From the NCBI RefSeq assembly GCF_045037415.1, contig NZ_CP173438.1: a stretch of 64,000 nt of DNA. One strand, 5' to 3'. Positions 45,601 to 48,600 of the stretch are shown in pieces; positions within the stretch are counted from its first letter, which is position 1; each line of letters begins with the position of its first letter. Source of the stretch: Escherichia coli (lineage in GTDB: Bacteria; Pseudomonadota; Gammaproteobacteria; Enterobacterales; Enterobacteriaceae). Position numbers: made by a program.

Positions 45601-48600
45601 GCATGCACAGAAATCCCCGTCGCAACAGCCTTTATCAGAAAACCATCTTTTTACCGGTCTATGGTGTTGCAGAGATATTTAATACTGACGCCGCGCATAC
45701 CATTTTTCTCCATCGCATTGTAAAGATGCGCACATACCGTCTTCATGGTTATCCCCAGCCGGTCTGCCAGAAAGGTAAACCCGTAGTCATGGAAAACAAC
45801 CCCGAAGACCACCACCATCTCTGTCCGGGTCAGTGGCCTTGCCGTATGTCCGAACAGCCACGCTCCACGGCGGATGGTTTGCCTGATATCTGTCAGGCAT
45901 CTCACAGAGGAAACAGGAATGACAAGAAACCGACGCCCACAGAACATAGAGTATGTAAGCCTTTCCAGATTACGGTCACAGAGAATCACATAACTGTCTT
46001 CGGGAAGTGACTGACGTTGCTTTCCGGCATTAAACAGCTCTCTGCCTGTCGTGACCTGATATCCGCTCAGTATACGCATCAGGCCATATTCCAGATATCT
46101 GTCCCGGGTCATAATAATAATCAGCATACTCTCTGCCCCTTGTATCCCGGATACCGGCTCCGTTTACCATTACCGGTATAACTGACTTATCATTCATAAC
46201 GGAAACTGTCTGCCGCATACATCAGCGCCCGCTCTTCCAGCTCTGACAGGCTCAGTTCTTTCAGTTCCCCTTCCCCTTCAGCAAGAAGATAACATTCAAA
46301 AACGGCTTCATCGTCGCATTCCAGACGCACCTGCGCCCTGTCAGCCCGACCGTTTACAATAAATAGCTGCACTGACCTTATGCGATAGTTCAGCATATAC
46401 ACTCTTCCTCTCAGATCTTCAGGAATACCCGGGAACAGTCAGTTATGCCATCGGGGAGAAAAACAGGCAGCGAATCATTACTTCATACCGAAAACTGCCT
46501 CCCCGGTGACTCAGGCCCGGGTTCAGAACTACCAGTTGACACCCACATTCCAGGAAACATAGCCGCCACTGAAAGTAGTACCTGCCTTTAAGCAGTCTGC
46601 TTGGCACTATACCCGCCCACAGCCGCTATGGCGTTAAATTTATCCTCACTGTACGGCTCCCGCTTCATTTCCTCGTGATTCTCATTAATCAGCCCTGCTG
46701 ACTGTTCAGACGCTCCGCATGCATCTCCAGCACCTCTCCCGGGGAAAGCAGCCCCCGGGTGTTACGGTTTATGGCCACCGTGTTCCGGATGATATTCTCC
46801 CTGTTCTCTGCAGCGACCGTATCTGTATGGTCACACGCCTTAAGCACTTATGCTGTAATCCGTCCACTGATGCCACTGTACACCTCATCCGTCAGCGGGT
46901 TCAGTTGCCTGATAGTGGCTGCTTCCGTATCCCATGCACCATCACTGATACCACCGGGACCCCGGATTTTATCCGGTCCCCGCGGACTGACAGGGTTTGT
47001 GACACCTGAGTCATATCTGATGTAAACTTCATTTTCACGGGTTGTACAGGAAAACTCCCCCTGTGCCATTGAATTCTGATGTGTGCCCTTCGCCACAACT
47101 CCCACCGTCACGGCACCAGTTGCATCTGACGCCGACCAACTGCTGAGAGCCATGCCGTTTCCGGCTTTGTCGACAACGCATGCTGCAGTTCCCAGCGATG
47201 CGAACTGGTCTGGCATGCATTCACGAACCAACAGCAGTGGTGCTACGTCCGGATGCAATTCGCATGAGCTCCAACCGCGGTTGTAAGTTCAGCAGCCCGG
47301 GCCTCTGCCCCCGGCACAGTCGCATAAGTATTCGATACCGTGCGACACCATTACCTTCAGGATACGCCACGGACCCGTCACCCTACGAAAACGCCGGAAC
47401 ACCGGCAATCAGCAAAGGCAGCAGTGATAAAAGACTGATATATTTCCTGTCATTATTTTTCATATTAATTTAACTCCTGATTAACCGGTTTTTATTGATA
47501 TGAGAAAGTAATAGTTGCAATAGCCTTCACACTTCCAGGTGTAGTTGCATCAGCAATTTTTATATAATTGGCTCTTAAATTGATATGTGGATTTACCTCT
47601 CCCCTGTAATCGGAGAAGTGCCATTGACTGCCATTTCCTTTCACAGGGGAGTCTTCACCATAGCTGATGGCAGTTACATCACTGTCTTTATATAGCCTGA
47701 TGCCAAATCCTTTTGCAGTGGATTCACTGCTTAAGGTCAATATATCTGTTCTGTTCACTGGCTGTGATGCATCTGTCAATGTAGCATAAACATCAATTCC
47801 ATCCGGGCATTGTAGGTGTATGTCAATTTTACCTCCCTGTATTTCTTTATACAAAGATGTGAACTGTGATTGATATACGGTATTTAATGGCACCACATAG
47901 TTTTTTTGCCCCATGGTACATGTCTGACTCTGTACCTGAATGCGCCCACCATTTAACATAACAGGTGCTGTCAGTCCTTTATTATTTAAACTTGTACGTT
48001 TTGCTTCCAACAAAATAGTACCAAGCTGCCTGGTGGGTATTGTTATATATCCATTGGGTAATCTTCCCGTTGCGACAAAAGCAACAAACAAACGAGCTCC
48101 GAAGCTTGCTGTCGCACCGTTATAAGTATTGGGGTTTGTATTGGCACCTACAGGGTCAATATATATACCTGAGCTATTTATGGGGACCAGAGGCGTTGCG
48201 GGCCAATAGCCCGCCATGCCAATAATAATACCCAGTCCGGATACACCAATATCATAGATATCAAAATCAGATGAATCACGGCTGTTTCCTTGATGGAAAG
48301 TATACGTAATACTTCCAATTTTAGGCAGTGCGGGTGTAAACTTTCCACGCATCAGAGCGATGGCACCGCCATTAAAAACATACTGGTTACTTGTTCCCGC
48401 CAGCTCTCCTATCACCCGGGGATAGGTATGGGCATCAGCAGGACCAATCACAACACCTGGCAATGTGGATGTATTAACCGCTATCTGCGAAGGCACATAA
48501 TCATCCGGACCCGCTACCGCCAGCTTAGGGAGTAAAATTAAAAACAATGGTATGAAAAAGATTCTTTTCATGTTTTTTCCTGATTAGGGTGCTGTATACA

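Follow-up and report, generated by a model that had tools for sequence, protein, structure and literature searches.

Between the P-fimbrial (pap) and F17-like (ucl) operons in a 64,000-nucleotide (nt) stretch of the Escherichia coli contig NZ_CP173438.1 (hereafter the window), a gene encodes a 158-amino-acid (aa) protein of the TosE family of small helix-turn-helix (HTH) regulators. We consider it probable that this protein is an intact, full-length family member, encoded by the stranded tail of a variant tos locus, and that it acts as a regulator that likely lowers motility. It is a displaced and partner-less relative of TosE, neither a truncated protein nor a native fimbrial regulator. In strain CFT073 the tos operon, tosRCBDAEF, encodes a secreted non-fimbrial adhesin of the RTX type, with the LuxR-family proteins TosE and TosF at its end. 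These two proteins are associated with suppressed motility by a mechanism that is unknown (PMC5956150; PMC7545054), and appear among the regulators of fliC (PMC10392849). In RefSeq the window protein is named a 'hypothetical protein', yet no regulator family other than its own has so far been connected with cross-talk between the tos adhesin and motility.

The open reading frame (ORF) begins with ATG, is the longest possible at its position, and is real and full length. Its RefSeq accession, WP_000905436.1, is that of an identical sequence found in complete E. coli genomes. Against CFT073 TosE the protein aligns over 153 of its 158 residues without a single gap, at 37% identity (E 7e-39). A word-indexed homologue search gave just near-identical E. 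coli alleles and fragments, and TosE was reached when 1.84 billion representative proteins were searched exhaustively; one match there (P0024, E 3e-27) is 99% identical to CFT073 TosE, the product of the gene after tosA. The family that emerges is very small, with 29 matches at E<=0.001. Its full-length members measure 155-169 aa, are 36-50% identical to the query, and align with it from the first residue to the end; much closer alleles, at about 86-89% aa identity, exist as well, those of 86-88% in a different genomic setting in other E. coli. The ORF is more than a chance ORF, since it has both these full-length homologues and these close alleles, from which it differs with a ratio of nonsynonymous to synonymous substitution rates (dN/dS) of about 0.44.

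The protein shares with the TosE family a length of about 155-170 aa and a conserved N-terminal domain joined to a C-terminal HTH, which appear as two compact domains in an AlphaFold model built from the family alignment (predicted local distance difference test score, pLDDT, 88; predicted template-modelling score, pTM, 0.83). The last four helices of the model superpose on the GerE, NarL and RcsB domains, giving the four-helix fold of this HTH class. Pfam GerE (PF00196) matches residues 111-141 at 17.6 bits, with a cut-off of 23.5 (E 0.0029). The GerE structure (PDB 1fse) is matched at E 0.013 with the single sequence and at E 9.7e-4 with the family profile, and 6 of 18 family members match GerE at E<=0.1 (best E 1.1e-4). 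Among NCBIfam models the best match is a weak, sub-threshold one to BglJ (E 7e-4), while the best for TosE is a weak hit to EcpR. Judged from the model, the C-terminal HTH is real but divergent. An earlier note on this DNA had proposed a small LuxR/GerE-type HTH protein, and the GerE search that it suggested does return a match, though one below the Pfam cut-off; it is at the level of fold that the proposal is clearly confirmed.

The same note saw neither an autoinducer nor a receiver domain. The first point holds, as the protein has no Pfam match to the N-terminal autoinducer-binding domain of quorum-sensing LuxR proteins and its N-terminal domain is receiver-like and just 92 residues long. 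The second needs correction, as these ~92 residues are modelled as a shortened receiver-like fold, with strands at residues 2-6, 25-27, 45-50 and 66-71, helices between them, and a further short strand at 91-92. A Foldseek search with the full model is led by full-length RcsB, EvgA, VpsT and FixJ, of which RcsB and EvgA match best (probability up to 0.99, E ~1e-3), at a template-modelling (TM) score of just ~0.42 because the domain orientations differ. On its own the N-terminal domain matches DosR and other receiver domains, and in the model it has the CheY-like receiver fold; Pfam Response_reg gives no match for the 158-aa protein. The receiver domain of DosR is itself a four-strand variant.

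Four-strand-receiver regulators of the NarL/FixJ type, such as DosR/DevR of Mycobacterium tuberculosis, provide a useful contrast. With residue equivalences inferred from model position, the only pocket residue kept in the window protein is the aspartate at the end of strand 3 (D51), the phospho-acceptor spot, where Cys50-Asp51 is invariant in the family alignment. The acidic pair after strand 1 is replaced by T-R-D, the Thr/Ser position after strand 4 varies, and neither a conserved Lys nor a helix 5 is present in this domain in the family alignment or the model, leaving the phosphorylation pocket incomplete. No histidine kinase gene is annotated within ~9 kb on either side, as read from the identical region of strain 4/0, or in the intact loci described below. 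The model thus presents a degenerate receiver-like domain whose phosphorylation is unlikely.

The origin of the gene can be read from loci in which related alleles have kept their neighbors. In the intact variant order, genes for a TolC-family protein, a type I secretion ABC transporter, an HlyD adaptor, a giant adhesin, a calcium-binding protein and a YadA-like adhesin are followed by a 68-aa ORF, the 158-aa protein and a 171-aa GerE-family protein. The Shiga toxin-producing E. coli (STEC) strain 2012EL-2448 (locus L013) carries an 88%-identical allele in this order, from TolC to the HTH regulator. We regard such a locus as a variant tos locus because it encodes TolC, ABC and HlyD proteins with 91-98% identity to CFT073 TosC, TosB and TosD, and because the 171-aa regulator of a second locus, L002, is 42% identical to CFT073 TosF. 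The 86-88% alleles in L002 and L013 hold the distal position of their tos loci, whereas tosCBDA is missing from the neighborhood of the window copy, which is therefore displaced.

What the window retains is a tos-locus remnant of ~1.96 kb (Table 1), with positions 47418-45499 ~85% identical in DNA to L002 6443-8626. Its immediate upstream neighbor, on the same strand, is uclD, and the start codon of the first gene of the remnant, the YadA-like pseudogene, falls 29 nt past the uclD stop. This pseudogene acquired a stop just past the signal peptide, more stops and frame changes, and deletions that add up to 314 nt; its intact homologue in L002 and L013 encodes 352-400 aa with Pfam YadA_anchor, YadA_head and YadA_stalk domains. 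By contrast, the 68-aa ORF, the tosE-like gene and their spacers contain no indels at all. At the far end, the first 26 of 26 nt of the tosF-like gene are identical to L002, after which identity drops to 34%, with homology ending at 45499; tblastn finds no other copy in the window. So the suspicion in the earlier note that a regulator had been truncated was half right: something was cut, and it was the neighboring tosF-like gene rather than the 158-aa ORF. Insertion-sequence and gene debris follows, its coordinates converted to the window by offset from the identical sequence of strains 4/0 and F11. Judged on sequence, the tosE-like gene is what survives of the regulatory end of a variant tos locus and did not evolve within the pap or ucl operons. 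The earlier note located it correctly, with papI and an IS66 fragment on one side and the ucl operon on the other, and this position between two fimbrial operons is the outcome of island rearrangement.

Table 1. Features around the tosE-like gene, in window coordinates.
Feature	Coordinates	Strand	Basis
papC (P-fimbrial usher), split	38789-41319	-	
papI	43497-43730	+	
Hypothetical ORF, 122 aa	44233-44601	+	
Hypothetical ORF, 69 aa	44740-44949	+	
IS66 transposase, C-terminal fragment	45170-45343	+	RefSeq annotation, strains 4/0, F11
Endonuclease/exonuclease/phosphatase gene fragment	45380-45469	-	RefSeq annotation, strains 4/0, F11
tosF-like stub, 8 codons (MRFICDNS) + stop	45498..45524	-	alignment with L002
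tos-locus remnant	45499-47462		
tosE-like gene, intact, 158 aa	45651..46127	-	ORF call, TosE homology, family alignment, RefSeq WP_000905436.1
C-terminal four-helix LuxR/GerE-type HTH, residues 97-152	45672..45839	-	
N-terminal domain, residues 1-92, four-stranded alpha/beta fold, receiver-like but shortened	45852..46127	-	
68-aa ORF, intact	46190..46396	-	tblastn; dN/dS
YadA-like trimeric autotransporter adhesin pseudogene	46523..47462	-	alignment to intact L002/L013 gene
uclABCD (F17-like) chaperone-usher fimbrial operon	47492..52448	-	annotation

The 68-aa ORF appears to be a regular companion of this group of tosE-like alleles. It is found by tblastn at 88-100% in L001, L015, L002-L005 and L013, and precedes the tosE-like gene in the window, F11, 4/0, L002-L005 and L013; among the loci of the group that were examined, the one exception is strain ABU 83972, in which an IS3 insertion removed it. 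The ORF has no Pfam or NCBIfam match, its dN/dS is 0.32, and the C-terminal half of its product is acidic. The product could be a small partner or co-regulator.

Comparison with CFT073 itself shows both kinship and divergence. TosE (160 aa, the penultimate gene product of its operon) resembles the window protein in length and two-domain layout, and its HTH likewise stays under the Pfam GerE threshold, at 19.7 bits. The two genes differ in GC content (49% in the window, 28% for CFT073 tosE) and in setting, as the window gene stands apart from tosCBDA, has no TosF, and is preceded by the 68-aa ORF and YadA-like gene that CFT073 lacks. Elsewhere, strain 1105 (L017) carries a 42% relative between a YadA-like gene and tosCBDA, and in another family locus the gene follows that for a calcium-binding protein. 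TosE-family genes without a TosF neighbor are also seen at L007 and in strain 1105. Members of the family thus consistently keep company with non-fimbrial adhesin genes, whether or not TosF is encoded next door, and tos loci exist as variants with very different tosE genes. In the variant loci L013 and L017, tosCBD are 91-98% identical to CFT073, yet the tosE alleles reach just 37-42%, and the distal genes differ. The variant tos locus of STEC 2012EL-2448 adjoins subAB, which encodes subtilase cytotoxin.

Other small regulators were considered as relatives. TosF (169 aa), which sits side by side with tosE in intact loci, is like the window protein a small protein with a C-terminal LuxR-type HTH. 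The two are not close: BLASTP aligns 22 HTH residues (E 0.009), hhalign gives a probability of 47%, and TosF passes Pfam GerE at 50.7 bits, unlike the window protein. Both TosF and EcpR were rejected as close relatives, alignment being confined to the HTH. AutA/AutR (HyxA/HyxR) of the UpaB cluster are LuxR/GerE-type regulators encoded beside a non-fimbrial adhesin gene in E. coli of the extra-intestinal pathogenic type (ExPEC) (PMC4844996). At 253 and 264 aa they are far longer than the window protein, and were rejected in the absence of significant BLASTP similarity (E above 4).

Across 5426 complete E. coli genomes, 403 carry a tosE-like copy of any kind, 368 a copy at least 99% identical to that of the window, and 35 a copy 90-95% identical, which in the cases examined is a variant tos-locus allele. 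uclD is present in 366. The near-equality of 368 and 366, counts that are not matched genome by genome, suggests that the ucl operon and the remnant spread together, and their co-occurrence is confirmed directly just in the loci examined: all four ucl loci (window, 4/0, F11 and ABU 83972) carry the gene directly downstream and on the same strand. F11, the strain of the Ucl regulation study, and strain 4/0 encode an identical protein, and the F11 layout is identical as well.

What such a protein might do is suggested by its relatives. When made, it would bind DNA as a dimer through its HTH, independently of phosphorylation, because the acidic pocket and Lys are missing. By homology, it would then, like TosEF, lower flagellar gene expression, so that adhesin production would go with reduced motility. 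The protein may function by itself or together with another NarL-type partner, such as RcsB. Transcription would most plausibly come from ucl read-through or from a weak internal promoter, because no promoter belonging to the gene itself is recognizable and the gene ancestrally upstream of it begins so close to the end of uclD. A promoter and terminator scan gave no more sites than shuffled sequence, and the sole hairpin past the end of uclD, a weak one (z 0.16), lies inside the former signal-peptide coding sequence. Motility repressors that end fimbrial operons, PapX and MrpJ, offer an analogy of position only with a tosE-like gene downstream of ucl on the same strand. Like them, the TosE family consists of small HTH proteins linked to reduced motility. 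PapX is MarR-like and MrpJ Xre-like, so a sequence relationship of either to the tosE-like protein is unlikely.

Several points weigh against this reading. The GerE match falls under the Pfam gathering threshold. The published motility effect belongs to TosE and TosF together, which the primary TosEF paper, by Engstrom et al. in 2014, reportedly assayed jointly, while the window protein has no such partner and is just 37% identical to TosE. On the minus strand the sequence immediately upstream holds no consensus promoter, and the only site, a weak one, is within the pseudogene, at 46993-46966. In ABU 83972 the IS3 insertion took the first 39 codons of the tosE-like gene along with the 68-aa ORF, which shows that this strain can do without the gene. 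The dN/dS of 0.44 between the window allele and a tos-locus allele (0.33 in the HTH, 0.52 in the N-terminal domain) indicates moderate constraint only. Finally, DNA identity to L002 is 91.4% in the ORF and 91.9% in the flanking spacers, and with both alike at ~91-92%, selection on the window copy is not demonstrated.

These points leave room for the gene being a silent relic, an ORF that stays open merely because the rearrangement is recent, untranscribed or inactive without TosF, and with no role in the cell. We think this possible, though we lean against it. The deletion of the partner gene and the decay of the upstream adhesin gene speak for it, as do the missing promoter, the IS3 disruption, and an ORF conserved no better than its spacers; furthermore, most carriers are at least 99% identical, and intactness in 348 genomes therefore weighs little in evolutionary terms. 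Yet the dN/dS lies below 1 and equals that between two intact-locus alleles (0.45), and no indels or stops interrupt the 68-aa ORF and tosE-like gene, with 684 coding nt between them, next to a gene that lost 314 nt and gained several stops. The TosE-family genes without a TosF neighbor, at L007 and in strain 1105, make solo action plausible, and the gene shares its strand with an expressed fimbrial operon. Correctly named, the tosE-like gene is a candidate for coupling Ucl expression to motility; should it prove silent, it would be an annotated relic.

A second alternative, which we judge unlikely, concerns how the protein works. It might be an auxiliary partner of RcsB in the manner of RcsA, BglJ, MatA (EcpR), DctR and RflM, forming a phosphorylation-independent heterodimer that redirects RcsB, for example to repress flhDC, in which case the loss of TosF would be immaterial. 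The window protein shares the architecture of these auxiliaries, being small, of NarL/FixJ type and equipped with a receiver-like domain that is degenerate, and the weak best NCBIfam matches of the window protein and of TosE, to BglJ and EcpR respectively, are consistent with the idea. The genes for several members of the class lie in adhesin loci or in loci acquired horizontally, that for MatA in an adhesin operon among them, and some members repress flhDC, as RflM does with RcsB (PMC5651002). However, this is a likeness of architecture and not of family: sequence similarity between the auxiliaries and the window protein is confined to the HTH, and a profile comparison with EcpR aligns the HTH only, at a probability of 25%.

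A more speculative proposal, which we hold to be improbable, is that the ucl island captured the tos regulatory tail. The 68-aa ORF and the tosE-like gene would then be transcribed by read-through from the ucl promoter, which is under phase and OxyR control, and in cells that make Ucl fimbriae this would lower flagellar motility or feed back on ucl expression, with no TosF needed. Ucl fimbriae are reported to promote gut colonization by ExPEC, and their regulation is only partly understood, with factors other than OxyR remaining to be identified (PMC9236248). If capture did occur, a chaperone-usher operon would have been rewired with a regulator from a non-fimbrial adhesin system in ucl-positive lineages (O25b:H4 strains, F11), and the regulator could be behind the Ucl cofactors that are yet to be identified. 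We found no paper that connects a LuxR or TosE-like gene to ucl, and the three RefSeq protein accessions searched appear in no paper. RefSeq naming of the tosE-like gene is itself uneven: intact copies are called 'hypothetical protein' or, in newer records, 'helix-turn-helix domain-containing protein', truncated copies carry the name 'LuxR family transcriptional regulator', and none is named TosE. A 101-aa piece of the YadA-like pseudogene is likewise a RefSeq 'hypothetical protein'.

More doubtful still is a role as a cross-regulator of the pap operon, the ucl operon or both, which the earlier note had raised and for which we see no support. The gene does sit between the two operons, its genome count is close to that of uclD, and the non-OxyR factors left open by the Ucl study (PMC9236248) could include it as a ucl cofactor. 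Yet by descent the gene comes from a variant tos locus with a YadA-like gene, which is a non-fimbrial adhesin locus; ABU 83972 retains the ucl operon despite its disrupted tosE-like gene; regulation of fimbriae is not known for any member of the TosE family; and the Ucl paper does not mention the gene (PMC9236248). The idea of a response regulator or quorum-sensing LuxR protein that has lost its N-terminal part, suggested by the short length and by a weak BglJ alignment that begins at profile position 114 of 207, is very improbable and in effect refuted by relatives that are all as short and share the N-terminus M-x-I-I-x-x-T, by the gapless TosE match, by an N-terminal domain confidently modelled as a compact fold, and by the absence of any longer ORF in the window.

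On the pap side of the tosE-like gene, papB and papI lie at about 42.8-43.7 kb. Further away, an indel at ~40166 breaks papC into two ORFs (433 and 440 aa) that overlap, and the gene is one base short of the intact papC of strain 4/0. The split is either a sequencing error or a frameshift in the usher, in which case the pap operon would be defective. The two conserved hypothetical ORFs of 122 and 69 aa occupy the stretch from papI to the IS66 remnant; neither has an NCBIfam match, and the 69-aa product is Cys-rich (CxxC...CxxxC). At ~44707-44719, between these two ORFs, strain 4/0 (L001 6181-8707) has ISEc23, an IS66-family element that the window lacks, and F11 bears IS100 at about the same place. 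The spot appears to be an insertion hotspot.

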